From the IMG/VR virus record IMGVR_UViG_3300045988_075937: a stretch of DNA of 36,557 bases; one strand, 5' to 3'. The stretch is from a virus. Of the stretch, positions 4,715-36,557 are shown one piece after another; position 1 is the first letter of the stretch; each line of letters begins with the position of its first letter. The position numbers were made by a program, and so were the translations under genes. The notes under the pieces were generated by a model. It searched no databases, was not told where the DNA came from, and saw only the letters and a list, made by a program, of their open reading frames with translations.

Positions 4715-4718
4715 TCCT

Positions 4719-7389: not shown

Positions 7390-7394
7390 TTTTT

Positions 7395-7420
7395 GAGCGC
7401 CCACCCGGCGCTCCTTTTTT
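7395..7420 (+). terminator. Rho-independent terminator after abi (GAGCGCC-caccc-GGCGCTC + T6)
   Basis: 7-bp GC stem, 5-nt loop and a T-run. Confidence 0.8.
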
Positions 7421-7606
7421 ACAAACGCAAAGAACCCCTCAGCTGTTTCCAGCCAAGGGGTTCTCTGCTCTGCTGTCTGTCCAAAAGAAAAGTAGGAGGT
7501 TCTATCATGGAATGCCTTGCAAATCCCGTCGCGTCTCCGCTTTTCTATTGTAAATCCAATATGATCCTTCTGCAACCCAGAATTTTTTCAGAGGAGGTGT
7601 GTACTC

Positions 7607-12409: not shown

Positions 12410-12453
12410 TCAGCCTATCACACAAACGTCCGTAATAACACTGCGGACTTTTT
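12410..12453 (-). promoter_or_regulatory. Late-promoter-like box, copy 2: GTCCGCAGTGTT-N16-TGaTAGGCT (extended -10), 20-nt leader to the tail-fibre ATG
   Basis: Collinear with the box at 34610..34653, with identical spacing (24 nt between the two blocks). Confidence 0.55.
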
Positions 12454-12533: not shown

Positions 12534-15500
12534 TTACCTCACTGCCGCATATGGGTCCGGTTTCGGTCCTTCCTCCGCTTTCTTTTCTGCCTCCTCCACC
12601 CACTGGGCAAAGTTTTTCTCCGTGTACAGCTCTTCTCCGTCTGCGTCCTTGAGCGCCAACAGCATTTTTTCCATCTGCTGCCGGTCTGCATCGCTTCCCG
12701 CAAGGTACTCCGGCTTTGCTGTCTCGGTGATCTTGCTTTTAAGTGTCGTCGCGCTCTTGCCCGCCTTCGCCAGCCTGTCATATTCTTCCTGCACAGCACC
12801 TGCATCCCAGCTGTCCACCGCTTCCACAAGGTCGTCCGTCACGCTGGCGTTATCGCCCTTCAGCTGCTTTTCGGCCAGCTGGTTTACCGCACCGGTCACG
12901 CAGTCCACCACATCCCCGCGCTTTCCCTTCGGCAGGCCCAGCACTTCGCTCAGCTGTTCGATCATCTCGTTTTCCAGCTCGTACCGCTTCTGGTCGTTTC
13001 CTGCATTCTGCTCTTCAGCAGCCTGCCGCACCCGCACGTCGTACTTTACAAGGCGGCTCTTCAGCTGGCTGTACATTTTGTTTTCCGCAATGGTTCCCGC
13101 TTCCACCATAGCGTTCAGCTTCTCCACTGCGGCCTTTGCTTCGTCGCTGTCGCCGCCGGCATAGGCGTTGTACAGCCGGTCATACTGGCCGGTGGCGCTT
13201 TGGGGCACAGAATTAAAGCTGAACTGTCCTCCGTGCGCAAGATTTTCAAGGTCACCATAGTAGCCCTTTACCGCTTCTACAATCTTCCGTCCATTGCCGT
13301 AGGGTACACCCGCCACTTCAAAGCTGTCCTCCAGCAGCGTCATGCTGCGCTGCATCAGCTTATTGTGGTGCTTTTGCAGCTGTTCTTCGTCCATTTCACT
13401 GGTGTCTTTCCGGAACTCCGCAAAAAACTTCTGCACATCTCCGGCCAGATCATTCACCACGCTGATGCTTGCTGCACTCAGCACGTCGTAATCCTTGCCG
13501 TTCACAGCATTGTCGATCAGGCTGTATAACTCACTTCCGTACAAAAAGTTTCCCGCAAAACTTTCTGTGTACAGGCTTGCAAACCGTTTCCACATGCTCT
13601 TCACGGTCACATCGCCGTTTTCGTCCTGCTCCCGGTCCCACCGGTGCAAAAGGAAATCTGCGCCGATCTTCATGATCGCAAATACTGCTGTCTGTACCGT
13701 CTGGCTCACAATGGCCCGGTTCCGCTGCTGTGTTGCCCGCTGCAGTTCTGCTTTGTTCTCATCGCTCTGGTTCTGCCGGTAGCGCTCCGCCTGTGCTTTG
13801 TAATCTCCTATGGCATCTGCCAGAATGCCGTAGTTCTGGAAACGCTGGGTGGTAAACATGGTCAGCTGCTTCAGCAGTTCATTGGGGTTACGCTGAATGC
13901 CCGCCCGCTGCATCACGGTGTAGTTGGGCTGTGTTTGCTCGATCACCTTCTGATAGGTGCGGTTCACCGCTTCCCAGTAGGCCGGGCTGCCTGTCACCTC
14001 CGCGCCTTCAAACTCGGCCGTGTGATTCTGCACGTATCGCTTGCTGCCTTCCCATAGCGCCGCCACCGTCACTTCGTCCATCCCGTTGATCCAGCCGGTC
14101 AGCCAGTTCGGCAGCTTGTCCATGCCCTTTTCGGCAAGGGTTTCCCGGTTTCCAATGCTGGCAAGCTCGCCGTTCTGGCTGCCGCGCTTGCGCCAGTCCA
14201 GCAGCACGTCTCCGTGCTCTTTGATCTCCGTTTCCAGCGCTGTCCGCGCCTTGGGCGAAAGATTCTTCACAAACGGCACCACTGCCGCCATGGTGTCGCC
14301 GCCCAGCACCGCAGCCGCCGTCGGCAGGCTTGCCGCCTGCGCAATGGCAACACCCGGGTTCAACGTCAGCACCGCGCCTGCATAGTTTCCGCGCAGGTTT
14401 CCCAATACTTTGTTAAAGGTGCTGGGCCGCTTGCGCTGGGTAGTCTGCAGGTCGGTCAGCAGGTCATCGATGTAGCTCACCGCATCTTTGCCCCACTGTT
14501 CCTTGATGATGCCGTTCTTCAGGTTTTCAAGGCCTTCCCGCGTCTCCACGCCGCTGTTCAGGATCTTCTGCACGTCCCGGATAGGTGCCGCAAGCCCTGC
14601 ATACGCTGCCGTATCCCGCAGGCTGCGCTGCACTACGTTCGCGCATTCTTCCAGCAAAATGGGCTGTCCACTCTTCACGCGGTTCTTCAGGAAACCGCGT
14701 CCCTCAATGGTGGCATCCAGATTCAGGCCGTCGATCTGGGTCGCCAGCACCGATTTATCCACCGCAATGGGGTAGTAGTTTTTCACGGTTGCCCGCTGGT
14801 AGCCCACCAGTTGCAGGCTCGTCTCGTTGATGAGCTTTGTGGTGTAGTTGTCGAAGAACTCCTTCATGTCCGCGCACCATGCCCTGTCATAGTCGGTCAT
14901 GGCCGCTTCCACCGTCTGCAGGATGCTGTCCGCTGTCGGGGTCCCGTCCGCATCCGTCAGCATTCCCAGATGTACGGTCTGTCCCTTCTGGTAAGCCTGC
15001 TCGATGTCGCCCTTGTTGTACAGCTTTGCATCCGGGATCACAAGTCCGCCGTTCATCAGGTGGTTCAGGCTGTCGGTGTTGTGCAGGTGCATGTACAAAC
15101 TGCACAGCTGTGCATGGGTCAGTTCGGCTTTCTTTCCCTTCACATCGGTCAGGCCCACGTCCACAAGGTCTGCGCCCGGGCCTGCAAAGTTCTGCATCTC
15201 CTTCACATGCTCTTTTCCGGTCACGTTGGCAAACAGCTTTTCGCCTTCCACGGTGATCTTCGTCTGCCGGTACTGGCCGTCGTTCAGCATGTTCGCCATC
15301 TTTTCCATCTGGCCGTTCTTCGCGTAGCCGCCCAGCATACGGAACACCCGCTCCGCGCCCAGCATGTCCAGCTGATACTTTGTCAGCAGATTGTGCATGC
15401 CGTCCAGCTTTCCGCCGGGGTGGTTGCCCTTGCTGGCATTCACCTCGCTGGCTGCGCCTTCTGCGATTGCGCTCACTTCCTCGGCCTTTGCAAGGCTCAC

Positions 15501-18500
15501 CGTCTTGTTTGCATTGCGGATCACATGCAGCGTCGAGCTGGTAATAGCCTTCAGCATCCGCATCTGATCCACCGTCATGGGCAGATAGGTGCGGTTCTCC
15601 GTCTCCCGGATGCGTTTGCGCAGCCGTTCCTGCAGTGCCCATGCTTTCTCGCTGTCCGGTAAAGCTTCTGCCTCGGCCAGCTGTTCGTGCAGTTTGGTCA
15701 GCTTTGCATCCTTCGTTGCCTGCAGGTCGTCCCGCAGCGTCTGGATCAGGGTATCCACGCCGGTCTGCTTCCATTCTTCGGTCATGGCGTTGGGGCTGCT
15801 CTCGCTGCCCGCGCTTTGCCGGATCCGATCCTGCAGCCTCGTCAGCTGGTTCACGGCCCGTTCGTTCAGAATGGTCATGTCCGCCAGCTTTGCCACCTGT
15901 GCTGCCGCATCGATCAGCCCCGGCTGCACATACTTGTCCTTGCTTGGCCGCAGCAGCATCTGGTTCAGCTGTGCCGCGTTCTGCCGGATGCTGCGTTTCA
16001 GCTCATCCATCTTCCGTGCATCCCGCGCCCGCTGCACTCGCTTTTCCGCTACTGTCTTCGCAACGGCAATGTCTTCGTCCCGCTGCTGCCGGGCTGTTTC
16101 AATGGCAAGGGCATTCCGCTGCGCCTGTTTCTGCTCCCATGCGGCCCGCTTGCGTTCGTTGTCTGCCTCCCATTCCATGATCTCATTTTCCTGCACGATC
16201 AGGCTGTATTCCGCCTTGTCCGCGCGCCGCTGCTCCTGCCGCAGCTGCCACGCCAGTTCGTTTTTCTCGCTGCGCAGTTTCTGCATTTCCAGCTTTGCCT
16301 CGTCCAGCATTTCCTGCCGTTCGGCCTTCAGGCGTTTCACTTCCTGCTTCATTTCCCGTTCATAGCTTTCCCGCAGCACCGTCAGCTTTTCGTTCAGGTT
16401 GCCCACATTGGAAACATCCACACCAAAAGTTTCAAGGTTCTGGTCCAGCATCTTTTCCGCTCTTGCGTTCTGCCGCTGCAGTTCGGTCATCTGCTGTACT
16501 TCGGCGTTCCGGTCTGCAGTGCGCCGGTTTTCCTGCATTCTGCGGCCAAACTCCCGCTGCTGTGCTTTCTGTACGCCGCGCAGTTCCTTCGTTACCTCTG
16601 CGGCACGTTCTTTGCTGCCTGCTGCGGCTCTTGCCACATCCATATTGTGTCGCTGGATGCCCTCAAAAATAGCCTGTGCGTCGGTCATCTCCGGTGTCGC
16701 CATAATGTCACCGATGATCCTGCCCGCCAGTTCGATCTTTGCATCCTCATACTCTGCATCGTCTGCAAACCGGCTCATCGTCGCAGGCTTGATGGCATCG
16801 TGCAGGTTCATCAGCACATTCAGCCACTCGGTGCTTTCCATGCTCATTGCACCGTCCACACCCGCCTGCTGCGCTGCAGCTTTCCACAATGCCTTTGCGC
16901 CGTCGCTGGTGCCGCCCACAGCGCGGTTGTCGTTGATCACGCTTTCGTACTGCTGTGCCGGGTTTCCGTCCCGCACGCCGTCGACCTGCCGCAGGCTCAC
17001 GCCGTGCTTCCGTGCCTCGGCCACCGCTGCGCTCCAGCTGCCGTAGGCTTTCACCAGTTCTGCCTTTGCCTGTCCGCTTCGGTTCACGGTATATTCCAGC
17101 TTGTGCAGTTCCGGGTATTCGTCCCACAGCTCACTGTTGCGGTAAACTGCCCCGTCCAGAATTTCTCCCGCCAGCGTTTCGGCCAGCGCATTGGCTTTTT
17201 CCATGTTCGCACCGTCGGCCTTCAGGTAGTCCACCAGTACTTCGGTCTCCCGCGCAAGCTTTGCCCGGTCCACCTTACTGCCGTTCGCCTTTGCCCAGCG
17301 GCTGGCCAGTCCTTCAATGGCCGTCCGGCTCACCTTCACACCCCGTGTCAGCCCAAAGAACTGGCTCAGGGTGTCCAGTGCTGCAGCCTTGTCCGCAATG
17401 GTGCGGCTTGCCATCTGCTGGTCGTTCCGCTTCGCGTCACGGCTGGCCTGCTCTGCCAGCTGATAGCGGAACTTTGCAAGGTCGCTTTCTTGTGCCAGTT
17501 CACCGGTCTGGTAATATTCCCGGATCTCCCGCACTACGCGGTCAGCATCCACACGTCCGCTGTATTCCTTGCCGGCTGCCACCCGACCATCTGCTGTGGA
17601 GATGTCCAGTGTGAACTGCCGTTTCTCGCCGCCCAGCTCCTGCACCATTCGCCAGATCTGTTCCAGCTGCTGCGTGGTGGGTGCTGTGTCTGCCGAGAGA
17701 TCCACTCCCGGTGCTTCAGCCATCACGCGCACATTGCCGTCCAGCAGAAATTCGTTCAGCGTTTCCGTTCCATTTTTCACCTCTGCCGAACCGAACACGC
17801 TCATGATCTCCCGGTGATCGGTATCTCGGGTTCGGTCATTCTGGGCAAAGTCCAGCATCTGGCCGTCCGGCAGAATGTACCCGGCTCGTCTGAAGTCCTC
17901 TGTCGTGCCAAACCGTTCTTTTGCCAGTACGCGGCGGTATTCTGCCTTTCCGCCGTGGGCTTCGGCCTTGGCATCATATACCGCCTGTTCTGCTTTGCCT
18001 TTTTTTGCGTTCTGCTGCTGCATCCGGGCACCGGCCTCTTTGATCCGGCCGTTCAGCACAGCGCTCTGGTCTTCCAGCTGCGCCATACGGGCATTGTAGT
18101 CTTTGCGCTTTGCAAGATAATTCTGGTATTCTTCGCTGTCCCGGTAGGCTTTTGCTTCTGCAGAAAAAATCCCCAGTGCCTTCTTCTTCGCCTCGATCTC
18201 TTTCACGGCGTCGCTTCCCAGCCAGGCACTGCGTTCTTCCTTCAGCTCCCGCCGCTGCTCGTCCAGCCGCTGCTGTTCGTCGCGCAGCTTCGTCAGCTCG
18301 TCTGCCTCGCTCAACTGATACCGTACATTTTTCTTCAGCGTCCCGTCATTTCCCTTGTTTTCAGCGGCTTCCTGTGCTATACTCTGGTTAGAGATCTTCG
18401 ACCCGCTGCTCCCCGAATCTTCGGATTCCATGTGGGCTTTGCCGAAGGTCTCCGTAAAGCTCTCCGGCAATCTACTCCTTGAATCTTCGGATTCTACGTG

Positions 18501-21500
18501 GGTACCACCGGAGGGCTTTATTTTTGTTTCTTTGATGTTAACAATATCATAAAAAATCTCCCGTGTATCCGGTTTGATGGCTGTCAGCACATCTGCCTCA
18601 TACGCGTTTTCGCCCACGCGGATTTTAATTCTTCCGCGGTTGAAGGCTTCCGCATTTTTGTGATTTGCGGGCTCGCGGTACACCTCATCCGCAGTTGCAA
18701 TGATTTCATCAAGATTGGCAGCCATGCGCATCTTGTCCGCATACGCTGTGGCATTTTCCCACTGTAATGCCTTTGAATACTTCGACCAGACAAACTCATT
18801 GCGTCCATCTTTGCTGTTCAGAATTGTCCAGCCGTTTCTTACAAAGCCATCCGGGAAACGTTCTCTGATTGCCTGCTTGACTACCGATTTCCAGTTTTCC
18901 TGCGGGATTCCTTTCAGAATATCCTCGTCGATCTGAATGTAAGTTTCTCCCTCGGCATCTTTCTTGATTTCAAACCTTGTCCCTTCCGCCGCGCCCTTGT
19001 TCTCAAGGGCTGCGGCGTTTTCTTTTGCGGCGCGCAGGCTGTCCATAGCCCTCTCCGCGTGGGCAAAGTATTCGTCCTGCAGCACCCGCTTTTCTGCCGC
19101 CGCAAGGCGCTGTGCTTTCAGGGCGGCTTTGTTCTCCGGGTCTCTTGCCAGCACTTCCTTTGCGCGGCTCACGATGTCGCTCAAAAGCTCCTTCACCTTG
19201 GTCATCACCTTGTGGATGCCGCCTGCCTTGCCTGCGTTCTTTTCAGCCTGCCCGCGCTGGAACTCCACCCAGCGCTTAAAGCTTGCTTCATCGCTGAAGA
19301 TTCCGCGCCATGCGTCCGCCACAAGTTCTTCTGCAGCTTCCTCGTAGCTCAGCCCCTGCTGTGCATAGTCGGAAAGCTTCCCCCGGATCATCTCGTCAAT
19401 GCCTTCAAATCCCTCGCTCTTTGCCAGAAATTCCAGTGCATGCTGCTGCAGTGCCTGCGCACCCTCTGCATCCAGTGAGTTGTACCAGTGGTAGTCCTCG
19501 TGCAGGATTGTGCCAAACACATCCTCTGCCCGGTCGTTGAAGAAAATGCGCGCCGTCTCGGTGTCCACATAAGCCCTCACCCGGTCGCTGCCTTGCAGCA
19601 CCGTTTTCAGCACCGCATCCGTGTTCGTGGCCTTCGCATTCAGTTCGATCAGCTGCGTGCCCACCTCGTTTGCCGTGCGCATCGTTCCCTTATACAACAC
19701 CCGGCCGCTGCCGCTGGTGCTTTCCGCCGTCAGCCTTCCGCCAAGGCTTGCGCGCTGCATGTTTCCGGCTTCCAGTTCCCCGTGTCCCTGCAGCCATGCC
19801 AGCTGCAGCGCTTCCCGTCCGCCGTCCTGTGCCAGCACGTAATCGGTGTTCACAGCAAGGCCGCTCATGCCCTGCGCCAGCTCCATAGCCTTGTCAAAGG
19901 TGGTCACATCTTCCATCTGTCCCAGCCGGTACAGGCTGCTGGCCGCAGCCGCATACCGCCCGGCATCTCCAATTTCTGTCGGCATGTTCCTGCTGATGGT
20001 CGCACTTGCCCCATCTGATACCTGCCATCGGGTCAGCTCCTGCTGCACCTCCCGCTGCTTTGCGGTCAGGCTCTGCTGTTCAAGGCCGTAGGTTTCCCGC
20101 ATCCCGCCAGACTGTTCCGCCGGGCTGCTTTCCACCCTTTCCCCGGTGTTCTCCACGGCAGCTCCGCTCTGGCCCAGCTCACTTTCCGTCTGTGCCTGCC
20201 GCGCAGATCTGTCAGCTTCCATTTTTTCTACAATTGCGGCCGTTTTTTGTGCTTCAACCGTCGCATTTTCGGTAGCTGCGGCCGGAGCCTGTGCTGCCCG
20301 CTGCTGTGTTGTCATTTCCCGCAATACCTGCCGGGTCTTTGCTGCCGTTTCCGGCAGCTCAATACCGTATTCTTCCGCAAAGGCAGCGCGGTTCGCTTCA
20401 TTGGCCGCATTCGGTGTAAATAGGTTGATGGTCTTGCTCGTAAGCTGCCCATCCTGCACAGCTGCGGCAAGCTGCTGCACAGCCGGGTTTTCGCTCTGTA
20501 CCATCGGCGCAGTATCCTGCATGGTCGCAAATCCGCTTGCCGCCCCCATCACTTCCGGCTGCACCGTTTCCTGCGTAGCAGCCGTAGGTTGTCGGGTGTC
20601 TGCTGCAGCTTCTTCCGGTGTCTGCTGCATCGCCATTCCCGGCTCCTGTGCCCGCACTTCGTCCTGCAATGCCTGCCGTACCTGTTCCACCTGTCCTTCG
20701 TAGTATGCCCGCTTCACGTTGCCCACAAGGCTGGCATCGCCGCCATTCATCTTCGCAAGCCCTGTGCCCACAGCACCGCCCAGGGCACCGGATGCACCGC
20801 CCGTCAGGCCGCTTTCCAGTGCGGTCAGAAAGGTGTCGCTTTTAAACAGGTCTGCCGCCGCTTCGCTGTCGCCCAGTGCTACATCAATGGCCTTGTCCGC
20901 ATAGGTCTCCACAAAGGCCTGCATGGCATTGTCCACGCCGCCGGAGATGGCATTTGCCACCGCCGGGTACTGCTGCGCAATCGCCCCGTCCGCCGCCACG
21001 CTGCGCACCATGTCCGCCAGTTTGCCCGCCAGTGTATCCTTTGCGTAGTCTGCGCCCATGGTCTTTGCAAGGTCAGCCGCACCTACGCTGTTAATGGCCC
21101 AGCCCGCGCCAAATTTTGCAAGGCCCCCGGCCAGCGTCTTGCCTGCACTTTCGCCCTTTTCAATGCTCTGGCCCATAGCCTCCGCACCGCCCTGCGCACT
21201 CAACACCGGCAGCACCCATGCCGGGTCAATGGCCGCCACCGCAAGGTTCTCGCCCGCACTGCTCGCAATGCCCAGTGCCTGCTTTGCAATGGGGCTAAGG
21301 CCCGCCTGTGCAGCTGCGGTCAGATCCTGTCCGCGCTTGTACAGCTGATAGCCAAAGCTCTTCTCCGGGTCTACGCTGTCATGCACTTCCGTTCCGGCAA
21401 TGCGCGCCCGCATGTTGTTGATCTCCTGCTGCGTGTAACCTTTTTCAATCAGCTCTGCATCCGTGTAGGCATCGCTCTGCGTTGTTTGTGCCGCCGGAGC

Positions 21501-22616
21501 ACTGGCCATTGCACCGCTGCTCTGTGCCAGCTGCAGCGTGTTGTCCCGCGCTGCATACCGCGTCTTTCCGCCGGTCATCAGGCGCAGCAGCTCCTGCTTC
21601 CGGTCGTCGCTCTGTACATCCTGCTGCAGCTGCTTCCAGTTCCCGCTGGTCGCCGCTGCATTCTTTACGCTCTGTACGCCGGTCTCTCCCGCCAGAAAAA
21701 CCGAGGATGCTACCGTGTCCCCAATGCCGCCAATGGTATTGGCCGCACGCCGCTCTGCACGCCGTCCTGCAGGCAGCGCATCAAAGTCGGCAATGTACTG
21801 CCGTGCTTCGCTGATCTCCTTGCGGCTGTATCCCTTTGCCAGCAATTCCGCGTCGGTGTAGTCCCGTCTGCCCACACTCTTTTCCGGTACTGCTGCTCTG
21901 GCTGCAGCACCGCTCACGCTCTGGGGCTGCATGGCGTTGTTTTTCTCGGCATAGCTCTGCCCGCCGGTGCCAATGCGCATCAGCGTCACAAGTTCCCGGT
22001 GCTTCGGGTCAGCGTCCATCCACTGGTTCAGTCGGTCAAAGTCTCTAAGATCGTCCGTCGCCTTCAGGTCTTCCGTGTACTGCTTCACCTTCTGCGCTGT
22101 CTGTGCATACCAGCCTTCGTCTCCGCTGGCAATGCCTGCAATGCGCTGGCGCCCAGTGGGCTGCACCGTTCCCGTTACCTTTGCCGCCGGGGCTGCAGCG
22201 CTCTTCGCGTTCAGCCATTCCGGCTGCGCAGTGCTGCTGCGTGTACCTGTACCGCTGTCGGTCACAATGCTGCTTTTGCCCGGATATGCCTGTGTGCTGC
22301 CCGTTTCCTGCGGCACTGTCAGCTGCAGCTTGTGGCTGCTGTCCATGCCCTTCATCTGCGCCAGCACCCGTGCACCAAGACCCGTGCCGGTGTTCTGCCT
22401 TGCAGCCGCAGCCGGGCTGGCAGCATTCTGTCCACTGTTTTTCGCTTTCCAGCTTTCCCGCGCTTTTGCAATGCGTTCCGGTGTCCACTTTTCCGTAGTG
22501 TTTGCTGTTCCCGCAGCTGTACCGGCGCTCGCCGTCCGGTTTGTGGTGCGGCTGTTGTTTTTCGCTTCCCAACTTTCTCTGTCTTTTTTCAGTCTTTCCG
22601 GTGTCCATTCGCTCAT
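12534..22616 (-). CDS. Giant (3360 aa) multidomain virion protein: putative internal/ejection protein fused to polyvalent effector-like modules (HExxH zincin motif, nuclease-like module, long coiled coils)
   Basis: A single uninterrupted ORF with AAGGAG 10 nt upstream of the ATG. It lies between the internal-protein genes and the tail fibre. HEDYH is at 19488..19502. See findings. Confidence 0.85.
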   Translation of the reverse strand: MSEWTPERLKKDRESWEAKNNSRTTNRTASAGTAAGTANTTEKWTPERIAKARESWKAKNSGQNAASPAAAARQNTGTGLGARVLAQMKGMDSSHKLQLTVPQETGSTQAYPGKSSIVTDSGTGTRSSTAQPEWLNAKSAAAPAAKVTGTVQPTGRQRIAGIASGDEGWYAQTAQKVKQYTEDLKATDDLRDFDRLNQWMDADPKHRELVTLMRIGTGGQSYAEKNNAMQPQSVSGAAARAAVPEKSVGRRDYTDAELLAKGYSRKEISEARQYIADFDALPAGRRAERRAANTIGGIGDTVASSVFLAGETGVQSVKNAAATSGNWKQLQQDVQSDDRKQELLRLMTGGKTRYAARDNTLQLAQSSGAMASAPAAQTTQSDAYTDAELIEKGYTQQEINNMRARIAGTEVHDSVDPEKSFGYQLYKRGQDLTAAAQAGLSPIAKQALGIASSAGENLAVAAIDPAWVLPVLSAQGGAEAMGQSIEKGESAGKTLAGGLAKFGAGWAINSVGAADLAKTMGADYAKDTLAGKLADMVRSVAADGAIAQQYPAVANAISGGVDNAMQAFVETYADKAIDVALGDSEAAADLFKSDTFLTALESGLTGGASGALGGAVGTGLAKMNGGDASLVGNVKRAYYEGQVEQVRQALQDEVRAQEPGMAMQQTPEEAAADTRQPTAATQETVQPEVMGAASGFATMQDTAPMVQSENPAVQQLAAAVQDGQLTSKTINLFTPNAANEANRAAFAEEYGIELPETAAKTRQVLREMTTQQRAAQAPAAATENATVEAQKTAAIVEKMEADRSARQAQTESELGQSGAAVENTGERVESSPAEQSGGMRETYGLEQQSLTAKQREVQQELTRWQVSDGASATISRNMPTEIGDAGRYAAAASSLYRLGQMEDVTTFDKAMELAQGMSGLAVNTDYVLAQDGGREALQLAWLQGHGELEAGNMQRASLGGRLTAESTSGSGRVLYKGTMRTANEVGTQLIELNAKATNTDAVLKTVLQGSDRVRAYVDTETARIFFNDRAEDVFGTILHEDYHWYNSLDAEGAQALQQHALEFLAKSEGFEGIDEMIRGKLSDYAQQGLSYEEAAEELVADAWRGIFSDEASFKRWVEFQRGQAEKNAGKAGGIHKVMTKVKELLSDIVSRAKEVLARDPENKAALKAQRLAAAEKRVLQDEYFAHAERAMDSLRAAKENAAALENKGAAEGTRFEIKKDAEGETYIQIDEDILKGIPQENWKSVVKQAIRERFPDGFVRNGWTILNSKDGRNEFVWSKYSKALQWENATAYADKMRMAANLDEIIATADEVYREPANHKNAEAFNRGRIKIRVGENAYEADVLTAIKPDTREIFYDIVNIKETKIKPSGGTHVESEDSRSRLPESFTETFGKAHMESEDSGSSGSKISNQSIAQEAAENKGNDGTLKKNVRYQLSEADELTKLRDEQQRLDEQRRELKEERSAWLGSDAVKEIEAKKKALGIFSAEAKAYRDSEEYQNYLAKRKDYNARMAQLEDQSAVLNGRIKEAGARMQQQNAKKGKAEQAVYDAKAEAHGGKAEYRRVLAKERFGTTEDFRRAGYILPDGQMLDFAQNDRTRDTDHREIMSVFGSAEVKNGTETLNEFLLDGNVRVMAEAPGVDLSADTAPTTQQLEQIWRMVQELGGEKRQFTLDISTADGRVAAGKEYSGRVDADRVVREIREYYQTGELAQESDLAKFRYQLAEQASRDAKRNDQQMASRTIADKAAALDTLSQFFGLTRGVKVSRTAIEGLASRWAKANGSKVDRAKLARETEVLVDYLKADGANMEKANALAETLAGEILDGAVYRNSELWDEYPELHKLEYTVNRSGQAKAELVKAYGSWSAAVAEARKHGVSLRQVDGVRDGNPAQQYESVINDNRAVGGTSDGAKALWKAAAQQAGVDGAMSMESTEWLNVLMNLHDAIKPATMSRFADDAEYEDAKIELAGRIIGDIMATPEMTDAQAIFEGIQRHNMDVARAAAGSKERAAEVTKELRGVQKAQQREFGRRMQENRRTADRNAEVQQMTELQRQNARAEKMLDQNLETFGVDVSNVGNLNEKLTVLRESYEREMKQEVKRLKAERQEMLDEAKLEMQKLRSEKNELAWQLRQEQRRADKAEYSLIVQENEIMEWEADNERKRAAWEQKQAQRNALAIETARQQRDEDIAVAKTVAEKRVQRARDARKMDELKRSIRQNAAQLNQMLLRPSKDKYVQPGLIDAAAQVAKLADMTILNERAVNQLTRLQDRIRQSAGSESSPNAMTEEWKQTGVDTLIQTLRDDLQATKDAKLTKLHEQLAEAEALPDSEKAWALQERLRKRIRETENRTYLPMTVDQMRMLKAITSSTLHVIRNANKTVSLAKAEEVSAIAEGAASEVNASKGNHPGGKLDGMHNLLTKYQLDMLGAERVFRMLGGYAKNGQMEKMANMLNDGQYRQTKITVEGEKLFANVTGKEHVKEMQNFAGPGADLVDVGLTDVKGKKAELTHAQLCSLYMHLHNTDSLNHLMNGGLVIPDAKLYNKGDIEQAYQKGQTVHLGMLTDADGTPTADSILQTVEAAMTDYDRAWCADMKEFFDNYTTKLINETSLQLVGYQRATVKNYYPIAVDKSVLATQIDGLNLDATIEGRGFLKNRVKSGQPILLEECANVVQRSLRDTAAYAGLAAPIRDVQKILNSGVETREGLENLKNGIIKEQWGKDAVSYIDDLLTDLQTTQRKRPSTFNKVLGNLRGNYAGAVLTLNPGVAIAQAASLPTAAAVLGGDTMAAVVPFVKNLSPKARTALETEIKEHGDVLLDWRKRGSQNGELASIGNRETLAEKGMDKLPNWLTGWINGMDEVTVAALWEGSKRYVQNHTAEFEGAEVTGSPAYWEAVNRTYQKVIEQTQPNYTVMQRAGIQRNPNELLKQLTMFTTQRFQNYGILADAIGDYKAQAERYRQNQSDENKAELQRATQQRNRAIVSQTVQTAVFAIMKIGADFLLHRWDREQDENGDVTVKSMWKRFASLYTESFAGNFLYGSELYSLIDNAVNGKDYDVLSAASISVVNDLAGDVQKFFAEFRKDTSEMDEEQLQKHHNKLMQRSMTLLEDSFEVAGVPYGNGRKIVEAVKGYYGDLENLAHGGQFSFNSVPQSATGQYDRLYNAYAGGDSDEAKAAVEKLNAMVEAGTIAENKMYSQLKSRLVKYDVRVRQAAEEQNAGNDQKRYELENEMIEQLSEVLGLPKGKRGDVVDCVTGAVNQLAEKQLKGDNASVTDDLVEAVDSWDAGAVQEEYDRLAKAGKSATTLKSKITETAKPEYLAGSDADRQQMEKMLLALKDADGEELYTEKNFAQWVEEAEKKAEEGPKPDPYAAVR

Positions 22617-27602: not shown

Positions 27603-28625
27603 TTAGTTTGCCAGCGCCTTTGCGCTGTAGCGTGCCGAGCAGCTCTCAATGCGCACCATGTACTGTTCGCTCAGCCGTTCCGCCGTCTTGGTGGCCTTCC
27701 AGCCCACAGAAGCACGCTGGTTCAGCGGGTCATCGCCGTAGCCCAGTTGCTTCACAATGTGCTGCATGCCGCCGCCTTCCAGTTCGGTGGTCGCGTAGGC
27801 GTGGGCACCCAGTACCAGCGTGCTGTACACAGCCAGCCCCGCCGGGCAGCCATCGCCCTTCCACACCTTTGCCTCGCTGGAAACCACGAACCGCACGTTG
27901 TTGATCTTGCCGATCTCGCCGTTGAAGATCTCCTCCGGTGCCGCATACTTGTGCGCCTCGATCCAGTTCGGGTCCTTGCGGATATCGTAGCTGGTGTGCG
28001 GGTGCACAATGGCCACAAAGCTGTCGCCAATGGGGTCTGCGTTCTGGGTCTGCAGCAGCGCCACTGCCTGGTCGATCAGATCCACCGTCAGCTGTGCAGT
28101 GGCATCCAGATCCGCACGGCTGGTCACGGCGGTCTCCGCGCCGCCCGTTCCGATCTTCGGTGCATAGATCACGTTGGTGCCGCCGTTCAGGATATCGCGC
28201 ACAATGGTGTCCATGGTACGGCCGCCCTGGCTTGCCAGCACATTGGTGGCCTGCACGATGTTGTTGTCAATGGCCGTCAGATCCAGCATGTCGGTCAGGG
28301 GCACCCAGCCGCCGTACTGGTGCACCTCGGCGGTCACGGTGGTCACGTTCAGCGCCTGACCTGCCGGGGTCACGCCCTCGGTCAGCGGCGTGGTGGCCTT
28401 GGGCAGCGCATCATACTTGCGGAACTCAATGGTCTTGCCGTTGTTCGCCGGAATCGGGTAACTGTCGCCGAACTGGTCATGCACCAGTGCAGGCTCTGCC
28501 AGATCCAGCAGGGTCTTTTCGTAGTAGGTCTTCATCTCAGCCGTCATACCGGCTGCGCCTGTGGTGTTCTGCAGCTGTGCGCTTGCGTCCGCAAACATCT
28601 GCAGATCCAGTCTCTTCTTGCTCAT
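27603..28625 (-). CDS. Major capsid protein, N4-gp56-like (HK97 fold) with an N-terminal Prp-type propeptide (MSKKRLDLQMFA|DAS)
   Basis: AGGAGG lies 8 nt upstream of the ATG at 28625. The pattern TIEFRKYDALPKATTPLTEGVTP is typical of the family. Confidence 0.85.
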   Translation of the reverse strand: MSKKRLDLQMFADASAQLQNTTGAAGMTAEMKTYYEKTLLDLAEPALVHDQFGDSYPIPANNGKTIEFRKYDALPKATTPLTEGVTPAGQALNVTTVTAEVHQYGGWVPLTDMLDLTAIDNNIVQATNVLASQGGRTMDTIVRDILNGGTNVIYAPKIGTGGAETAVTSRADLDATAQLTVDLIDQAVALLQTQNADPIGDSFVAIVHPHTSYDIRKDPNWIEAHKYAAPEEIFNGEIGKINNVRFVVSSEAKVWKGDGCPAGLAVYSTLVLGAHAYATTELEGGGMQHIVKQLGYGDDPLNQRASVGWKATKTAERLSEQYMVRIESCSARYSAKALAN

Positions 28626-28683
28626 TTGTTTATCCTCCTTCAAAAGGGTTTATCTTTCTCGCATTCTTCGCGCGGGAAATCTC

Positions 28684-30048
28684 TCACAGCACAATGCGTT
28701 CTCCGCGCTGTGCCCTGCGTGCCAGCTCTTTCCGCTGCTGCCGCGTCATGTGGGCCACATCCACCTTCATCTCGGCCGCGCCGCCTGGATGTGTCCCGTT
28801 CTCAGCCGGGCGCTGGCTGCGCTGCTGGATGCGCGTTGCCACGCCCTGCTCCACCTGTTTTGCCGTGCGGGCCGTCTGGTTTTCCATCAGGCGGTCAAAG
28901 TAGGCTGCACGGTACGCCGCTTCCAGCCCCACGCCCCGCCGGATCATATCCGCCACGGCAGGGTTGTTCAGCACTTCGTCCAGCTCAAAGTCCGGGTAGC
29001 TGTTTTTCAGCTTTGCCGCTTCCGCTTCCCACCGGGCACGCACTGCCGCTGCACGCTGCTGGTGCTCCGCGGCCAGCCGCAGCTGTTCGGCCTGCTGCTT
29101 TTCAGCATTGGCGCGCTGCAGCTGGCCCTCCATGCGGTCCATCTCCCGCGCGGTTTTCACGCTGATGCCCCGCTGCGCCGCCAGCGTTTCATAATATTCA
29201 TCGTTCTTCACCCGGCCGTTTTTCACGGCATCGATCAGCCCGTCCATGTCGCTCATGTCAATGCCGTAGGCTTCGGCCAGCACCTTGCCCAGCTCGTTCA
29301 GCTGCGGGTTTTCCCGGATGCTCTGCACCGCCATCCGCGCAGCATGCTGCATGGCCTCTTCAAACTCTTCCGGGTACTGCTGCATCGCCTTTGCAAAGGC
29401 ATTCCGGCGCTGTTCCGGTGTCAGCTGCACGTTTTCTTCGGTTTCGCCGCCCTGCTCCTGCTCGTTGCCCTTGTCCGGTTCAGCTTCCTCCTGCGTCAGC
29501 CGTTCGGCATCGACTTTGGCTCCCTCATTGAGGGAGCTGCCGCCTGCAGGCGGCTGAAGGTTTTTTTCTGTCGTCGCTTTTGCTGCTTTGCCCGGCCTGC
29601 TGCGTTTCGCAAGCCGCTCCTGTGCGGGCCGCAGGGCAGGCGGTGCCACCGGGCTGCTTTCGCCCTCTGAAGCTTGCGCACCGTCACCGGAACTGCCAGC
29701 TGCTGCACCGTCACCAAATAACTGCAGATCCATGTTGTCTGCATCGTTTGCATGCAGGTTCATGAGCTGCACATTCTCAGGGTACTGCTGGGCCAGCAGG
29801 TACAGCCCATCTATCACCAGCTCAAACTTCGCCAGAGTGTCAAGGCTCCGGTTCGCCTGTACACGCAGGATGTTGTCCCCGCCCGGGTCGCAGGTCACAG
29901 TGCCGCTATCCACGCTGTAAGCCAGGCTCTGCATCAGTGTGCTCACCGCCGCGCACACAATGTCCTGTCCTTTCGGCGCATAGCCCGCGTGTCCCGATGC
30001 CTGCAGGCTCATGTCCTTCCCTTTTTCGTCGTAAATAATGGTGATCAT
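28684..30048 (-). CDS. Fusion ORF (454 aa): Prp-family cysteine protease (aa 1-100) plus scaffolding protein (aa 106-454)
   Basis: MIT...SGHAGYAPKGQDIVCAAVS...YPENVQL matches Prp (His20/Cys32). An MDLQLFG|DG motif follows, then an acidic coiled-coil C-terminal region. There is no stop and no RBS between the two parts. Confidence 0.85.
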   Translation of the reverse strand: MITIIYDEKGKDMSLQASGHAGYAPKGQDIVCAAVSTLMQSLAYSVDSGTVTCDPGGDNILRVQANRSLDTLAKFELVIDGLYLLAQQYPENVQLMNLHANDADNMDLQLFGDGAAAGSSGDGAQASEGESSPVAPPALRPAQERLAKRSRPGKAAKATTEKNLQPPAGGSSLNEGAKVDAERLTQEEAEPDKGNEQEQGGETEENVQLTPEQRRNAFAKAMQQYPEEFEEAMQHAARMAVQSIRENPQLNELGKVLAEAYGIDMSDMDGLIDAVKNGRVKNDEYYETLAAQRGISVKTAREMDRMEGQLQRANAEKQQAEQLRLAAEHQQRAAAVRARWEAEAAKLKNSYPDFELDEVLNNPAVADMIRRGVGLEAAYRAAYFDRLMENQTARTAKQVEQGVATRIQQRSQRPAENGTHPGGAAEMKVDVAHMTRQQRKELARRAQRGERIVL

Positions 30049-30066
30049 TTTATTCTCCTTCCCCGG

Positions 30067-30330
30067 TCACTTGTTCAGATCGATCTGCTCGATCGCCGCC
30101 CGGATCTCCATCGTTTCCAGATACATTCCCATGCGTTTCTGCTGCTCCCGCAGCAGTTCAAGCGGGCAATCATGCCTCGGCTCTTCCCTTCCGGTCCTTT
30201 CCGCCGCCTCGATCCGGTTGCAAAACCCTTTCAGTCTTTCGTACCGTTCCTTCGTCTGCCGGTACTCCGCTTTAAAGCGTTCCCGGTAGTCGTTACTGAT
30301 CATGCCATCGATGGTGTCTTTCAGCTCCAT
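30067..30330 (-). CDS. Small helical protein (87 aa) between portal and scaffold
   Basis: AGGAGG RBS. It vaguely resembles small 'crAss001_48-related' helical proteins (low confidence). Confidence 0.55.
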   Translation of the reverse strand: MELKDTIDGMISNDYRERFKAEYRQTKERYERLKGFCNRIEAAERTGREEPRHDCPLELLREQQKRMGMYLETMEIRAAIEQIDLNK

Positions 30331-30342
30331 GCCGTTCCTCCT

Positions 30343-32424
30343 TCACTTGTTCGGGTTGTTCACGTCCATGGCCCGCTTTGCGGCCTGGGTCGCCATGCTG
30401 TTGCTCCCGCTTTCGCCCACCACATCTCCCAGACTGTTGGTGGTGCTCTTCGCGTCCGCGGTCCCGCCGCCCCCTGTTCCGGCAGCACCGGCAGCCTGTC
30501 CGGCCGCGCTGGCTGCTGCGCTCACGTTGGTGCCGTTCTGCTGGTCAATGATGGCGGCCATCTTCTGCATCTGCTGTGCCATCTGCTGCAGCTGCTGGTA
30601 CAGCGTGCCGTTCTGGCTCACCCTCTCCCGCACCTTCTCAATGCCTTCAAAGTCCATCATTTCCAGCGCAGCAAGGGCAGCATCGGCGTTGGCCGGTGTA
30701 AAGAATCCCAGCTGGTAGCACTCCTTTGCCGTCTCGTTCTGAGAAAGGCGGCTGAAAGTGCTTTTCTTTGCCGCGCTTACCGTAATGTCGAACACCGGCT
30801 CATGGTCGCCCAGCTGCACACCGCCCACATTGCCGCCGGGCACGGCCTGCAGCATCGCATTGCTGAACGGTACATACTCCACGCCGCCGCTCTCGCCAGT
30901 AATGCGGTATACCCGCTCTTCGTCGTAGAACTGCCGCATCAGCTCGATCACAAGGTAGCATTCTTTTGCAAACGTCCGGTACGCGCTTTTCAGCATATCG
31001 CGGCTAAGTTTGCTGCCCGCCTCCTGCAAAGCCGCAATGGCGCTTGCCGCTGTCAGGCCGCTGGTGGTTCCGCCCTGGCTCACATCCCGGTTGCCGCTGA
31101 TTTCCTTCAGCTCGCTCACCCGTGCATCCCGGTAGCTGATGCAGTTGCCGCTCAGTACATTGGTCTGCAAAGGCCGGAAACTGTCGTCCGTCAGCCTGCC
31201 CACCACGTGCACGATGTCCTTGCCAAAGTCGGCCAGCTCTTCTTCGTTCACACCCGCTGTGTCGCTCAGCACATAACGGGCCTTTGCAGCCAGTTTCACG
31301 TTTTCGTCCATGGCGTGGTTCATCTCGTCAATGGCGGTCTGGGTGTCCTTCATCACATCAATGTATCCAAAGCCCGCCGGGCTGTCCTCTTCCCGGAACA
31401 GCGGGTCAAACACAAAGGGGTATTTTCCGTGGTCGTAAAATCCACGCTGGGCATACTGCGGGTCATTCTCGCTGGCATACAGCACCACGCCGTTGCAGTA
31501 TTTGCAGTAATGCAGCACCGTCTGTCCGCCCTCAAGGGCCTTTTTGTAATACCAGTCCACCACAACGCTTTTGTCGCTGGTGTCAATGCTGTCGTCGTGG
31601 ATGTACTTTGCCACATCCATGCTGCTGCCCGTGTGCCCGGCCATCTGCGGGTATCGCCCTTCCAGCTGGTCATTGTCCATAAGGCTCAAGCTGAACAGGT
31701 GCGGCGTGTCCTGAATATCTTCCACGCCCGGCTCCCAGTACAGCATCAGCAGGTTCACGCTCCGGATGCAGATCTCGCCAAGCCCGCCGCGCGCCTCCGG
31801 GTCCCAGAACACGCCCTTCACGCCGGTGCCGGTCTTCAGCTTGCGCCACCATGTGTCGCTGTACACGGTCTCGTAGTCGCACTGCTCCAGCACCGTGGGC
31901 AGGATCTTGGAAAGCGCTTTTGCTGTTTTCTCGTCGTCCTCTGCCCGCGGCAGCACGTTCGGTTCCGGGTAGTTGTCCATGGCATCGGCGTGCTTGTTGG
32001 CAATGCTGTTGAACAGCCATCCGCTGGAAGGCTTGGGCTTGCCCTGCATTTCCTTGTTTTCGTAATTTTTCCAGTGTCCCATGCGGAACCACAGCTCGTT
32101 TTCGATGATGCGTTTGTCCAGTGCGGCCTTGCCCGCCTTGTACTTCTGCAGCAGGTCGTTTGCCTTCCGCACCTCGTCCTCACCGATCGCTTCCTCTTCG
32201 TCAAAGGCTCCCTCCCCGAGGGAGCTGTCTGCGCCAGCAGACTGAGGGAGTCCGGTTCCCGGCATCGCTCCCTCCGGCCGTTCCGGAAGCAGCTGCATGC
32301 CCATCGGCATCTGCGCAGGCTGTCCGCCCTGCATCATCCAGTCCGGTATCTGCTGGCCGCTCTCTTCCTGTGGTGGGTATCGCTCCGACAGCTGTCGCAG
32401 CAGCTCTTTCTCGTCCATCGTCAT
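30343..32424 (-). CDS. Portal protein (693 aa)
   Basis: Size and position directly after TerL. Gly/Ala-rich C-terminal tail. Confidence 0.75.
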   Translation of the reverse strand: MTMDEKELLRQLSERYPPQEESGQQIPDWMMQGGQPAQMPMGMQLLPERPEGAMPGTGLPQSAGADSSLGEGAFDEEEAIGEDEVRKANDLLQKYKAGKAALDKRIIENELWFRMGHWKNYENKEMQGKPKPSSGWLFNSIANKHADAMDNYPEPNVLPRAEDDEKTAKALSKILPTVLEQCDYETVYSDTWWRKLKTGTGVKGVFWDPEARGGLGEICIRSVNLLMLYWEPGVEDIQDTPHLFSLSLMDNDQLEGRYPQMAGHTGSSMDVAKYIHDDSIDTSDKSVVVDWYYKKALEGGQTVLHYCKYCNGVVLYASENDPQYAQRGFYDHGKYPFVFDPLFREEDSPAGFGYIDVMKDTQTAIDEMNHAMDENVKLAAKARYVLSDTAGVNEEELADFGKDIVHVVGRLTDDSFRPLQTNVLSGNCISYRDARVSELKEISGNRDVSQGGTTSGLTAASAIAALQEAGSKLSRDMLKSAYRTFAKECYLVIELMRQFYDEERVYRITGESGGVEYVPFSNAMLQAVPGGNVGGVQLGDHEPVFDITVSAAKKSTFSRLSQNETAKECYQLGFFTPANADAALAALEMMDFEGIEKVRERVSQNGTLYQQLQQMAQQMQKMAAIIDQQNGTNVSAAASAAGQAAGAAGTGGGGTADAKSTTNSLGDVVGESGSNSMATQAAKRAMDVNNPNK

Positions 32425-32428: not shown

Positions 32429-33889
32429 TCAAATCCTCATCACCCGCGTCCGGCTCTTGCGTCTGTCCATATCCAGCGGGTCATCTTTCATCGGCTGCAC
32501 CGGTTCGGTCTTTCTGGGGCTGATGGGGTTTTCCATCAGCACATACCGGCACTCGTCGTAAATGTGGTCTTCCTGGGTGGTGTCAATGTCTTCCACCCGG
32601 CTCTCGTCGTACACAAGGTTCGGAATGGTGCGGATAAAATGCCTGCAGGTATCAAATACCTGAAACATCGGCCTGCCCTCGCCGTCAAATGCCAGCCGGT
32701 AGTGCAGCTGCATCTTGCCTGCAAGTCGCGTGTGGTCGCCCGGTGTCCAGAAGATGTAATTCGGGTGCTTTTCCTGCATGGCCGCAATGCTCTCGCCCTG
32801 ACTCTCGTTGAAGATAGCCGGGTCTGCCACGCCGGTAATTTGCCGCCCGCGCAGCATTGGGTCGTTTTCCTCCGCTTCCTTGATGCGCCGCGCCTGCTCT
32901 ACCGGGTCTATCTTCAAGCCTTCGTTGGGCACGCCGGTGCAGCCGTACAGCTCCTTGATGCGGTAAAGCCGTCCTTCCTCGTCCGCTGCGTACCAGCCAA
33001 CGGAGAAAGGCTTTGCATAGCCAAAATCGTACCCGCGCCAGATGCGCCAGTGTGCTGGAATGCGGAACGGCTTGATCACATGCGTCCACCGCTGATCCTC
33101 GTAGTGGGCCGGGTCGTTGCGCCATTCGGTAAATACCTGCCCGTTAAAACTGTCCCAGTCGCCGTAGAGCAGTGCCTGCTTTTCCGCTTCCGGTAAGCTT
33201 GCCAGCGTGCCCAGATATCCCGGGTCGTTTTCCAGCAGCTTTTTGTTGTCAAACACCGTGGACGGGATAAACACCCTTGTCCGCCGCAGCTTTTCTACAC
33301 TGCCGTCCGGTTTTTTCACATCCACCAGCTGCACCATCCTCGTGCCCGGTGGTGCCGGTGTAATGAACCGTGCCTTCACCCATCCGTGGCCAATGCCGCC
33401 GGGGTTTGCCGTGGCCCGCATGTACACTGCCGTGCCCGGCCCGGTAGGTCGGTTGCGGCTCATCAGGTAGCTGTATTCCTCCCAGGTAAAGTGGGTCAGC
33501 TCGTCCACGCCGATAAAATCAAAGGCTTTGCCCTGATAGTTGTATTTGTCCTGCGTGCGGAACATGCTGCCAAAATAGATCTTCGCCCCGCTCGGAAAGG
33601 TCCATACGTGGCTGGAGGCGTTGTACCGCGCTTTCGGGAATACCGGCTTGTAGTACTGCATCGTCTTGTCGATCAGCTCCGAAAGCTGCGGGTAGGTTTT
33701 CCGCACGATCAGCCCGCGGTAGTGCGGAATGTCCACCTGCCGCAGCGCTTCGATCACCAGTGCATCGCTCTTTCCTCCGCCTGCTGCCCCGCCGTACAGC
33801 GCTTCGTCCTCGCTGCGGCGCATAAAGGCTGCCTGCTTGGGCTGCGGCCGCCAGATGACCAGCCGGTTTTTATACAGTTCCGCTGCCAT
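32429..33889 (-). CDS. terL: Terminase large subunit (486 aa)
   Basis: Walker A GGAAGGGKS, Walker B FDFIGVDELTHF and a C-terminal nuclease region. Confidence 0.95.
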   Translation of the reverse strand: MAAELYKNRLVIWRPQPKQAAFMRRSEDEALYGGAAGGGKSDALVIEALRQVDIPHYRGLIVRKTYPQLSELIDKTMQYYKPVFPKARYNASSHVWTFPSGAKIYFGSMFRTQDKYNYQGKAFDFIGVDELTHFTWEEYSYLMSRNRPTGPGTAVYMRATANPGGIGHGWVKARFITPAPPGTRMVQLVDVKKPDGSVEKLRRTRVFIPSTVFDNKKLLENDPGYLGTLASLPEAEKQALLYGDWDSFNGQVFTEWRNDPAHYEDQRWTHVIKPFRIPAHWRIWRGYDFGYAKPFSVGWYAADEEGRLYRIKELYGCTGVPNEGLKIDPVEQARRIKEAEENDPMLRGRQITGVADPAIFNESQGESIAAMQEKHPNYIFWTPGDHTRLAGKMQLHYRLAFDGEGRPMFQVFDTCRHFIRTIPNLVYDESRVEDIDTTQEDHIYDECRYVLMENPISPRKTEPVQPMKDDPLDMDRRKSRTRVMRI

Positions 33890-34609: not shown

Positions 34610-34653
34610 TCAGCCTACCACCAAACAGCCTGCAAAAACACTGCGGACATTTT
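34610..34653 (-). promoter_or_regulatory. Late-promoter-like box, copy 1: GTCCGCAGTGTT-N16-TGgTAGGCT, 26-nt leader to the terS ATG
   Basis: Collinear with 12410..12453. It lies directly downstream of the sigma/RinA-like gene. Confidence 0.55.
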
Positions 34654-36438: not shown

Positions 36439-36557
36439 ATTTTTTTTCGTCTGCGCTGTCCTTTGTGCGCCATCCAGCCTTCCTTTACGTAGTCGCTCCG
36501 GTTCACTCTGTCCCGGGATACCATGTCCTTTGTGTAGGCTTTTTCTGCTTTCACCGC
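36439..36557. repeat. Terminal direct repeat, copy 2 (identical to 1..119)
   Basis: Direct base-by-base comparison of both contig ends. Confidence 0.95.

Follow-up and report, generated by a model that had tools for sequence, protein, structure and literature searches.

What is a short double-hairpin element doing in a phage genome where it occurs three times in one orientation, twice inside genes for structural proteins and once beside an early gene? The question is raised by the IMG/VR virus record IMGVR_UViG_3300045988_075937, a stretch of 36,557 nucleotides that is analyzed here as a whole and is called the window. A preliminary description, made from its letters alone, had noticed the three copies and had proposed a miniature mobile insertion, a structured RNA or DNA recognition site, or a shared peptide motif. 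Here we describe the three segments as members of a family of short dispersed repeats, found widely in gut Clostridia of the order Oscillospirales and also in their phages. The two hairpins of the repeat covary, and its third block covaries with one of them in a register that is the signature of an intrastrand triple helix. As the best explanation we propose, tentatively and with somewhat less than an even chance of being right, a largely selfish repeat that acts at the DNA level, in a non-B form, and promotes rearrangement of its surroundings.

The window contains exactly three copies, of 45–46 nt each and all on the minus strand. Together with the two open reading frames (ORFs) that harbor them, they are:

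32206–32251, minus strand: copy C (portal), a complete element, read in frame within the N-terminal extension of the portal protein; covariance-model match
32207–32225, either strand: constant hairpin (hairpin 1) of copy C, GCTCCCTC-NNN-GAGGGAGC, a perfect palindrome with the same reading on both strands
32227–32242, minus strand: variable hairpin (hairpin 2) of copy C, GTCTGC-TGGC-GCAGAC
32244–32250, minus strand: third block of copy C, CTCCCTC on the minus and GAGGGAG on the plus strand, matching the purine arm GAGGGAG in parallel register at 7/7 positions
29518–29563, minus strand: copy B, within the linker that joins the Prp protease domain to the scaffold-like part, in frame; covariance-model match
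29519–29537, 29539–29554 and 29556–29562, minus strand: hairpin 1, hairpin 2 and third block of copy B
3731–3775, minus strand: copy A (early region); covariance-model match
3732–3750, 3752–3766 and 3768–3774, minus strand: hairpin 1, hairpin 2 and third block (CTCCTTC) of copy A
30343–32424, minus strand: P22-like portal gene (P22_portal Pfam match at amino acids 150–641), host of copy C
28684–30048, minus strand: Prp protease domain (amino acids 1–94, Pfam) fused to a scaffold-like ORF, host of copy B

Exact matches to the core pattern GGCTYCCTCNNNGAGGGAGCTG occur at 3731, 29518 and 32206, with a chance expectation of 0.03. A covariance model built from 68 foreign copies only gives three full-length matches, all on the minus strand, at 3723–3781 (E = 2.8e-15), 32198–32257 (E = 3.5e-15) and 29510–29569 (E = 4.7e-12), and otherwise nothing in the window falls below E = 1 save palindromic half-hits at the same three sites. 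The number and common orientation of the copies are thus borne out, as are the arms first proposed for hairpin 2 (GTCGGC/GCCGAC, GTCTGC/GCAGAC and GCCGCC/GGCGGC). The early copy is indeed 1 nt shorter, and the missing nucleotide lies in the loop of hairpin 2. On the coding strand the plan begins with A-CTCCCTC-A, continues with a GC hairpin in which two pairs covary (G TC NN C, loop, G NN GA C) and ends with A-GCTCCCTC-NNN-GAGGGAGC-C. Read on the plus strand it becomes GCTCCCTC-NNN-GAGGGAGC-TG-hairpin-CT followed by a GAGGAG-type block, that is, the succession of a pyrimidine block, a loop, a purine block, a hairpin and a purine block. In hairpin 1 of copy A there is a single mismatch, C·A when read on the minus strand and a G·T wobble when read on the plus strand. 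The third block of this copy matches the purine arm GAGGAAG in parallel register at 7/7 positions, and that of copy B is degenerate (AACCTTC, 4/7 parallel matches).

The portal ORF, whose first ~76 residues form a variable extension that includes copy C, reads this copy in frame as GLPQSAGADSSLGEGAF, and the Prp-scaffold ORF reads copy B in frame as NLQPPAGGSSLNEGAK; both translations place the element in variable, low-complexity linkers, in agreement with the preliminary description. The third copy had been assigned to the 5′ region of an early gene. Its proximity to a gene start holds, and the site itself proves to be a divergent intergenic region of ~140 bp, where the copy is in frame with an upstream ATG at 3780. 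Since a second ribosome-binding site and ATG at 3690 are equally good, copy A could be either a 5′ untranslated region (5′-UTR) or a dispensable N-terminal extension.

Two further observations concern the surroundings of copy A. Between 3691 and 3831, the region of ribosome-binding site and start is near-duplicated on both sides of the copy (AAGAGCGCATGA, 12 nt). A probable membrane-protein gene on the plus strand (~3832–4281) diverges from the early operon nearby.

The element is not restricted to genes of phages: its family spans Oscillospirales genomes and is mostly intergenic. Scans with the exact pattern returned at least 120 viral loci and at least 120 genome contigs, and a second scan with other arm variants at least 120 further loci, so that the proposed check for further copies with covarying stems yields them by the hundreds. 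Among the matches listed, the genome contigs include Faecalibacterium, Gemmiger, Flintibacter, Intestinimonas, Acutalibacteraceae and many metagenome-assembled genomes, and 75% of 251 non-redundant copies lie outside long ORFs. Tandem and composite intergenic arrays occur in other contigs. In the annotated phage collection the element is found in no cultured phage, its only matches being unannotated faecal contigs, and the genome loci listed include no prophage closely related to the phage of the window. No published description of the element was found in the literature searched by sequence and by topic.

The arrays, observed in the contigs L062 (1687–2079 and 6444–6909), L012, L030 and L072, are of two kinds. 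In one, the element forms intergenic tandem arrays with a 66-nt period. In the other, it lies inside a 158-nt composite repeat, present 9–11 times on both strands, which is reminiscent of BIME clusters.

In phage late operons around portal genes, about 95% of the copies are co-oriented with transcription (138/142 at E ≤ 0.01 and 123/127 at E ≤ 0.001), and three sites hold copies repeatedly: the junction of portal and scaffold, the interval from the scaffold to the capsid gene, and the DNA immediately 3′ of the capsid gene. For genome contigs, a rough gene call places the element more often after a co-oriented gene (60 vs 30).

Both hairpins are supported by compensatory changes. In an alignment of 123 distinct copies of equal length, 99% of the cells of the two-hairpin structure are paired and eight pairs are changed on both sides. 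Shuffles yield 67 doubly changed cells and slid controls 36 at most, compared with 222 observed; the covariation score of 0.33 likewise exceeds that of slid controls, which reach 0.11 at most. This confirms a repeated element with covarying stems at the nucleic-acid level. In hairpin 2 only the two inner pairs vary (AU/GC/UA/CG) and G·U is almost absent. Hairpin 1 invariably has a 5′ arm of pyrimidines and a 3′ arm of purines, with transitions only; its 5′ arm variants GCTCCCTC, GCTCCCCC, GCTCCCCT, GCTCTCCC, GCCCCCTC and GCTCCTCC each come with the matching partner.

The third block adds another level to this structure. The CTCCCTC upstream of the portal copy had been taken for an extra of that copy. 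However, an upstream third block is present in 217 of 228 non-redundant copies among the matches listed, and in the window it is intact in copy A as well and degenerate in copy B. An alternative antiparallel pairing with GAGGGAG had also been suggested. RNAfold predicts this Watson-Crick hairpin, which would make a switch, for the portal copy (ViennaRNA models Watson-Crick hairpins only), but comparison rejects it, the antiparallel helix model covarying no better than slid controls. It is instead the parallel register that covaries, at 5/7 positions. The pair counts there are UA 60/CG 59 at position 2, CG 74/UA 20 at position 4 and UA 120/CG 3 at position 6, and positions 3 and 5 are also doubly changed. 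Examples of the covarying triples are CTCCCTC/GAGGGAG, CCCTCTC/GGGAGAG, CTCCCCC/GAGGGGG, CCTCCTC/GGAGGAG and CTCCTTC/GAGGAAG. Where variants are asymmetric, the upstream tract mirrors the 5′ arm instead of repeating it. A permutation test over 33 triple types gives 194 matches in the parallel register, against a mean of 166 and a maximum of 183, with none of 20,000 permutations as good; the same test in the antiparallel (direct-repeat) register gives p = 0.23. Furthermore, the mutual information between the third block and the purine arm is confined to the diagonal.

Such complementarity, parallel to the purine strand of a duplex, is the signature of an intrastrand triple helix. The topology of the chain fits a “paperclip”, in which the third strand is followed by hairpin 2 as a connector, the pyrimidine arm, a 3-nt loop and the purine arm. 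The block order of a class II purine motif (homopyrimidine, homopurine, homopurine, with stems of at least 6–7 nt) is found in the same 217 of the 228 listed copies. The mirror symmetry of purine-motif triplexes (G·G-C, A·A-T or T·A-T triads) is present too, with one recurrent non-canonical triad at position 4. The loops depart from the 1–6 nt of the ITxF short-loop criterion: loop 1 is 3 nt, and loop 2 has 2 + 15–18 nt (up to ~40) and is itself a hairpin.

Which strand would fold? The coding strand would give a C+-rich pyrimidine motif (class IV), and the plus strand the class II purine motif. On the coding strand, oriented mismatches are C·A rather than T·G in 21 vs 6 cases in hairpin 1 and in 7 vs 1 in hairpin 2; because they are mostly C·A, they are G·T wobbles on the plus strand, which favors DNA. 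In copies whose purine arm opens with A, the coding strand also has A in the third block, giving on the plus strand a T·A-T triad, which is canonical only in the purine motif (Holder et al., PMC4666352). Moreover, purine-motif triplexes are formed at neutral pH in DNA and not in RNA, and a DNA oligonucleotide of the E. coli repeat TMECO forms a stable triplex at neutral pH by circular dichroism and nuclear magnetic resonance (Holder et al., PMC4666352). Taken together, the asymmetry of mismatches, the T·A-T triad and the restriction of purine-motif triplexes to DNA favor the plus strand, and hence suggest DNA rather than RNA as the active form.

The copies themselves come and go, or are exchanged for one another, between phages with 99% identity elsewhere. 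In the closest relatives, 99% identical through the terminase and through the portal core to the capsid, a single segment is replaced:

32189–32422, minus strand: segment bearing copy C, with unrelated sequence in the closest relatives (99% identical on both sides)

In other relatives, a clean 60-nt in-frame presence/absence indel in the portal gene is bounded by a 9-nt direct repeat, GGAGGGAGC. Both the portal copy and an intact, model-detectable scaffold copy vary in presence among relatives; where no copy is detected at the scaffold site, degenerate hairpin remnants remain. Within 99% identical flanks, the same site may hold a different arm variant or a truncated copy.

From these observations we infer the following course of events. 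In an unpaired strand, the two perfect palindromes would fold into hairpins, and the third block, homopurine on the plus strand and homopyrimidine on the minus, would occupy the major groove of the constant hairpin, giving a triple helix of seven triads with the variable GC hairpin as connecting loop. The folding species would most likely be the DNA strand complementary to the mRNA, that is, the plus strand, where G·G-C, A·A-T and T·A-T triads would make up a class II purine motif. The element would be largely selfish or neutral rather than a gene-specific signal, persisting and spreading through recombination or template switching between copies and favoring indels and the replacement of segments around it, as at the N-terminus of the portal protein and in the scaffold linker. 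Within genes its survival would be limited to disordered linkers and to one orientation, in which the stable purine motif does not fall on the mRNA-like strand.

Several points weigh against this explanation. The largest variant group (27 of 123 copies) keeps the non-canonical triad at position 4, a T opposite G-C, and the scaffold copy of the window has a poor third block (4/7). The covariation rests on perhaps 5–8 independent arm variants, and relatedness inflates the statistics; the triplex itself is a prediction from this covariation. The wobble asymmetry could partly reflect mutation bias. The co-orientation of about 95% with transcription is what a function at the RNA level predicts, and E. 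coli TMECO has no such bias; another possible reading of it is selection against having the stable purine motif on the non-template (lagging-template) strand. In addition, the hairpins are kept at orthologous coding sites in phages only ~80% identical, which could mean a local function, and no mechanism of spread emerged, as neither a target-site duplication of fixed length nor a clean empty site was found.

The alternative that survives best, with a limited but real chance of being right, transfers the fold to RNA. According to it, the transcript of the coding strand folds into the two hairpins and a pyrimidine-motif triple helix (class IV; C+·G-C and U·A-U), and punctuates polycistronic phage messages as an exonuclease roadblock, a stabilizer or a processing site, thus setting the levels of portal, scaffold and capsid mRNAs. 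The sense orientation of 138 of the 142 copies near portal genes speaks for it, as do their recurrence at the portal-scaffold and scaffold-capsid junctions and right after the capsid gene, the excess of co-oriented preceding genes in genome contigs (again 60 vs 30 by the rough gene call), the structure kept at orthologous sites, and the ability of pyrimidine-type intrastrand triplexes to form in RNA. Nevertheless, the stems are nearly devoid of G·U pairs, and the mismatches break the pairing of the mRNA but leave a wobble on the other strand (28 vs 7). A triplex with 5/7 C+ triads is unfavorable at neutral pH, and the A-for-A triad of position 1 is non-canonical for the pyrimidine motif. Also unfavorable are the 3-nt loops in both hairpins, the absence of a Rfam match, and the absence of a U-tract or of an association with promoters when viral and genome copies are compared with control positions.

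Some more specific roles were considered and rejected. An intrinsic terminator does not fit, as no U-run follows on the coding strand at any of the three copies and four or more T after the hairpin are found in only 22 of 170 viral and 5 of 134 genome copies. As for a tiny transcription unit, a promoter-proximal leader or a terminator, some copies do lie after -10-like boxes or before T-runs, with no enrichment over controls. A hairpin promoter for an N4-like virion RNA polymerase, an idea that came from a 3360-residue ORF of this genome, is dismissed because that ORF matches only LPD3 and the copies are not confined to the early region. Finally, a known RNA family was sought in vain: Rfam 15 gives no match at gathering score over the window, and permissive scans around copies A and C give only chance-level matches of at most 18 bits.

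It is also conceivable, though we hold it rather doubtful, that evolution maintains the element as a strand-specific triple helix, which would do a real job in gut phages as well as in the hosts. If this were true, it would be the first natural repeat family whose Hoogsteen strand visibly covaries with its duplex. The job could be that of an RNA that blocks exonucleases and shapes the expression of late operons, or that of a signal in single-stranded DNA acting in one orientation, for instance in priming, replication pausing or recombination.

A non-autonomous mobile element, REP/RAYT-like or of the IS200/IS605 PATE kind, is unlikely. Its hairpins and guide-like tracts would be the single-stranded DNA substrate of a host or phage HUH or Y1 transposase or nuclease, and only foldable copies would be mobilized. 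The high copy number and patchy distribution across families would be explained, together with the tandem and clustered arrays and the subfamilies that share diagnostic compensatory changes. The invariant positions at the junctions and in hairpin 2 (A8, G9, C11, C14, G18, G21, C23 and A24) suggest sequence-specific recognition, and the orientation bias is compatible with strand-specific transposition of single-stranded DNA. Direct repeats of 9–26 nt flank a subset of the copies, including copy A, the striking cases being of 12–26 nt. These repeats are, however, not general: the length distribution of the longest common substrings is close to that of the shuffled-partner control. Pairs of filled and empty sites lack a clean footprint of excision or insertion; even with 98–100% identical flanks they differ by short replaced stretches or keep the 3′ part of the element, and therefore the direction of the event is ambiguous. 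No transposase turned up beside the copies, in surveys that included no search aimed at transposases, and the window encodes only a tyrosine integrase. Of the miniature mobile insertion initially suggested, the expected presence/absence polymorphism is common, and the terminal inverted repeat, the fixed target-site duplication and the clean insertion pairs are missing. An origin as a miniature inverted-repeat transposable element (MITE) or from another transposon was rejected, the ends of asymmetric variants being mirror-related and not inverted, the flanking repeats rare and variable in length, and the filled/empty pairs unclean.

A binding site in double-stranded DNA, where a dimeric regulator or a packaging or recombination protein recognizes the 8-3-8 palindrome, is very improbable. 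In its favor, the half-sites of the constant hairpin are conserved and their spacer is fixed at 3 bp with unconserved sequence; but the half-sites themselves covary between variants, the variable second palindrome and the mirror-related third block would be meaningless for a dimer that binds duplex, and the element occurs in many unrelated genomes and in arrays.

The shared peptide motif SSL(G/N)EGA, for example a protease site, or a chance similarity is refuted: both coding copies of the window do use the same frame, the commonest among the embedded copies listed, but three quarters of the 251 listed copies lie outside long ORFs, copy A is out of frame, only 0.03 matches are expected by chance, and at the orthologous scaffold site the reading is SSLNEGA or SSPDGGA in one set of phages but TPPKGEP, shifted by one base, in another. 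The peptide is thus not conserved, since orthologous scaffold genes keep the palindrome and yet read it in different frames, the reverse of a conserved peptide over unconserved nucleotides.

For genome annotation the element matters as an abundant and uncatalogued repeat of the Clostridia that dominate the human gut and of the phages of these bacteria. Spurious conserved “peptides” arise from it in portal and scaffold proteins, and it marks hotspots of indels and module exchange. The three-way covariation constitutes unusual comparative evidence that a triple helix, and not just hairpins, may be under selection in nature. Furthermore, an element of 45 nt with natural compensatory variants offers a compact model for testing intrastrand triplexes in replication, recombination and mRNA stability.

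The genome in which the three copies lie is ~36.4 kb long and was assembled circularly, bases 1–119 recurring identically at 36439–36557; this terminal direct repeat of 119 nt is most simply the overlap of a circular assembly, so that the window would hold one complete genome. The phage is temperate, nearly all its genes are on the minus strand, and its relatives are human-faecal phage contigs without annotation. Its other identified genes are:

32429–33889, minus strand: large terminase (Pfam)
27603–28643, minus strand: major capsid protein (Pfam)
12534–22616, minus strand: polyvalent protein, a single ORF of 3360 amino acids whose only Pfam match is an LPD3 domain at amino acids 1241–1346
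6463–7389, plus strand: Abi_2 abortive-infection-like protein (Pfam), within a low-GC island
7607–8740, plus strand: tyrosine integrase (Pfam), within the same island

Additional features of this genome deserve mention. The 3360-residue ORF spans over a quarter of it, and near its 5′ end a 52-nt repeat occurs at 22436–22487 and 22556–22607, 120 nt apart. The low-GC island (~4000–8000; 46% vs ~59%) has plus-strand genes and a 27-nt repeat, AAAGAAGCATAAAAAA(T/C)AAGCCGCCTT, at 5162 and 6244. In the ORF at 28684–30048, the peptide MDLQLFG sits just after the Prp domain; it resembles the Prp cleavage motif of ribosomal protein L27 and of staphylococcal phage capsid and scaffold proteins, and its position suggests self-processing or an internal start. 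Between the portal and the Prp-scaffold genes, a 274-nt segment with an 87-residue ORF (30061–30334) is missing in the relatives L245 and L247, which are otherwise 97–99% identical. A second small repeat family, at 2734–2766, 3650–3682 and 18497–18529, consists of a GC hairpin followed by a T-run on the plus strand, antisense to genes; the copy at 3650, which scores as a terminator on the plus strand, falls within the first codons of the gene that starts at 3690. In addition, a 44-nt repeat with 77% identity (12410–12453 and 34610–34653) ends in a hairpin and TTTTT on the plus strand, at two gene boundaries.

Among known systems, the element is comparable by analogy to BoxC/PIT/TMECO most closely and to REP/BIME more loosely, and two others share single traits with it. 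The palindromic repeats known as RPE (Rickettsia palindromic elements) and as Correia elements (Neisseria) insert in frame in protein genes and are tolerated as extra peptide. Unlike the element, they are 100–150 nt long, bear no sequence relationship to it and have no triplex architecture, and Correia elements possess terminal inverted repeats and a TA duplication. In ENE/MALAT1-type RNA triple helices and in triplex pseudoknots, a third strand in the major groove of a hairpin stem protects the RNA; the likeness would matter only if the RNA alternative were right. Their U·A-U triads with a poly(A) or A-rich partner contrast with a C-rich tract in a self-contained fold, and we know of no bacterial or phage example of that family.

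The REP/BIME repeats of Enterobacteria and Pseudomonas are likewise abundant palindromic repeats of ~35–50 nt, lying mostly between operon genes, single or arrayed, and proposed to be mRNA stabilizers or protein-binding sites. The element differs from them in that its consensus lacks a GTAG-type head, it has a third, mirror-related block and its copies are also found within coding sequence; no RAYT turned up with it, the host genomes not having been screened for RAYT genes.

The resemblance is closest with BoxC/PIT/TMECO, the intrastrand triplex repeats of E. coli and other Proteobacteria (Hoyne et al., 2000; Holder et al., 2015, PMC4666352). They resemble the element as short dispersed repeats, rich in G/C, in which one strand carries a pyrimidine block, a loop, a purine block, a loop and a purine block (class II), with unconserved loops of which the first is of 3 nt. 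Both are multi-copy, vary in number between close relatives, are tied to locally variable DNA and have a CCCTC/GAGGG flavor in common, and the turnover of the element parallels the “genomic instability” reported around TMECO loci. Nevertheless, direct comparison with the TMECO consensus CCCTCNCCC-N3-6-GGGNGAGGG-N3-GGGNGAGGG shows different stems, of 7–8 nt instead of 9 nt, as befits a separate repeat family. The second loop is a GC hairpin of 15–18 nt or longer with covarying pairs, and because of it published triplex finders, which allow loops of 1–6 nt, would miss the element. TMECO is reported absent from mobile elements, is always intergenic and has no orientation bias, whereas the element is found in Firmicutes and phages, lies also in frame inside genes and is strongly biased in orientation. 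The evidence for BoxC/TMECO is mainly biophysical (PMC4666352), and that for the element is a three-way covariation. Altogether, the element appears to be a triplex-forming dispersed repeat outside the TMECO sequence family, distinct in its host range, in its in-frame copies within structural genes and in its orientation bias.

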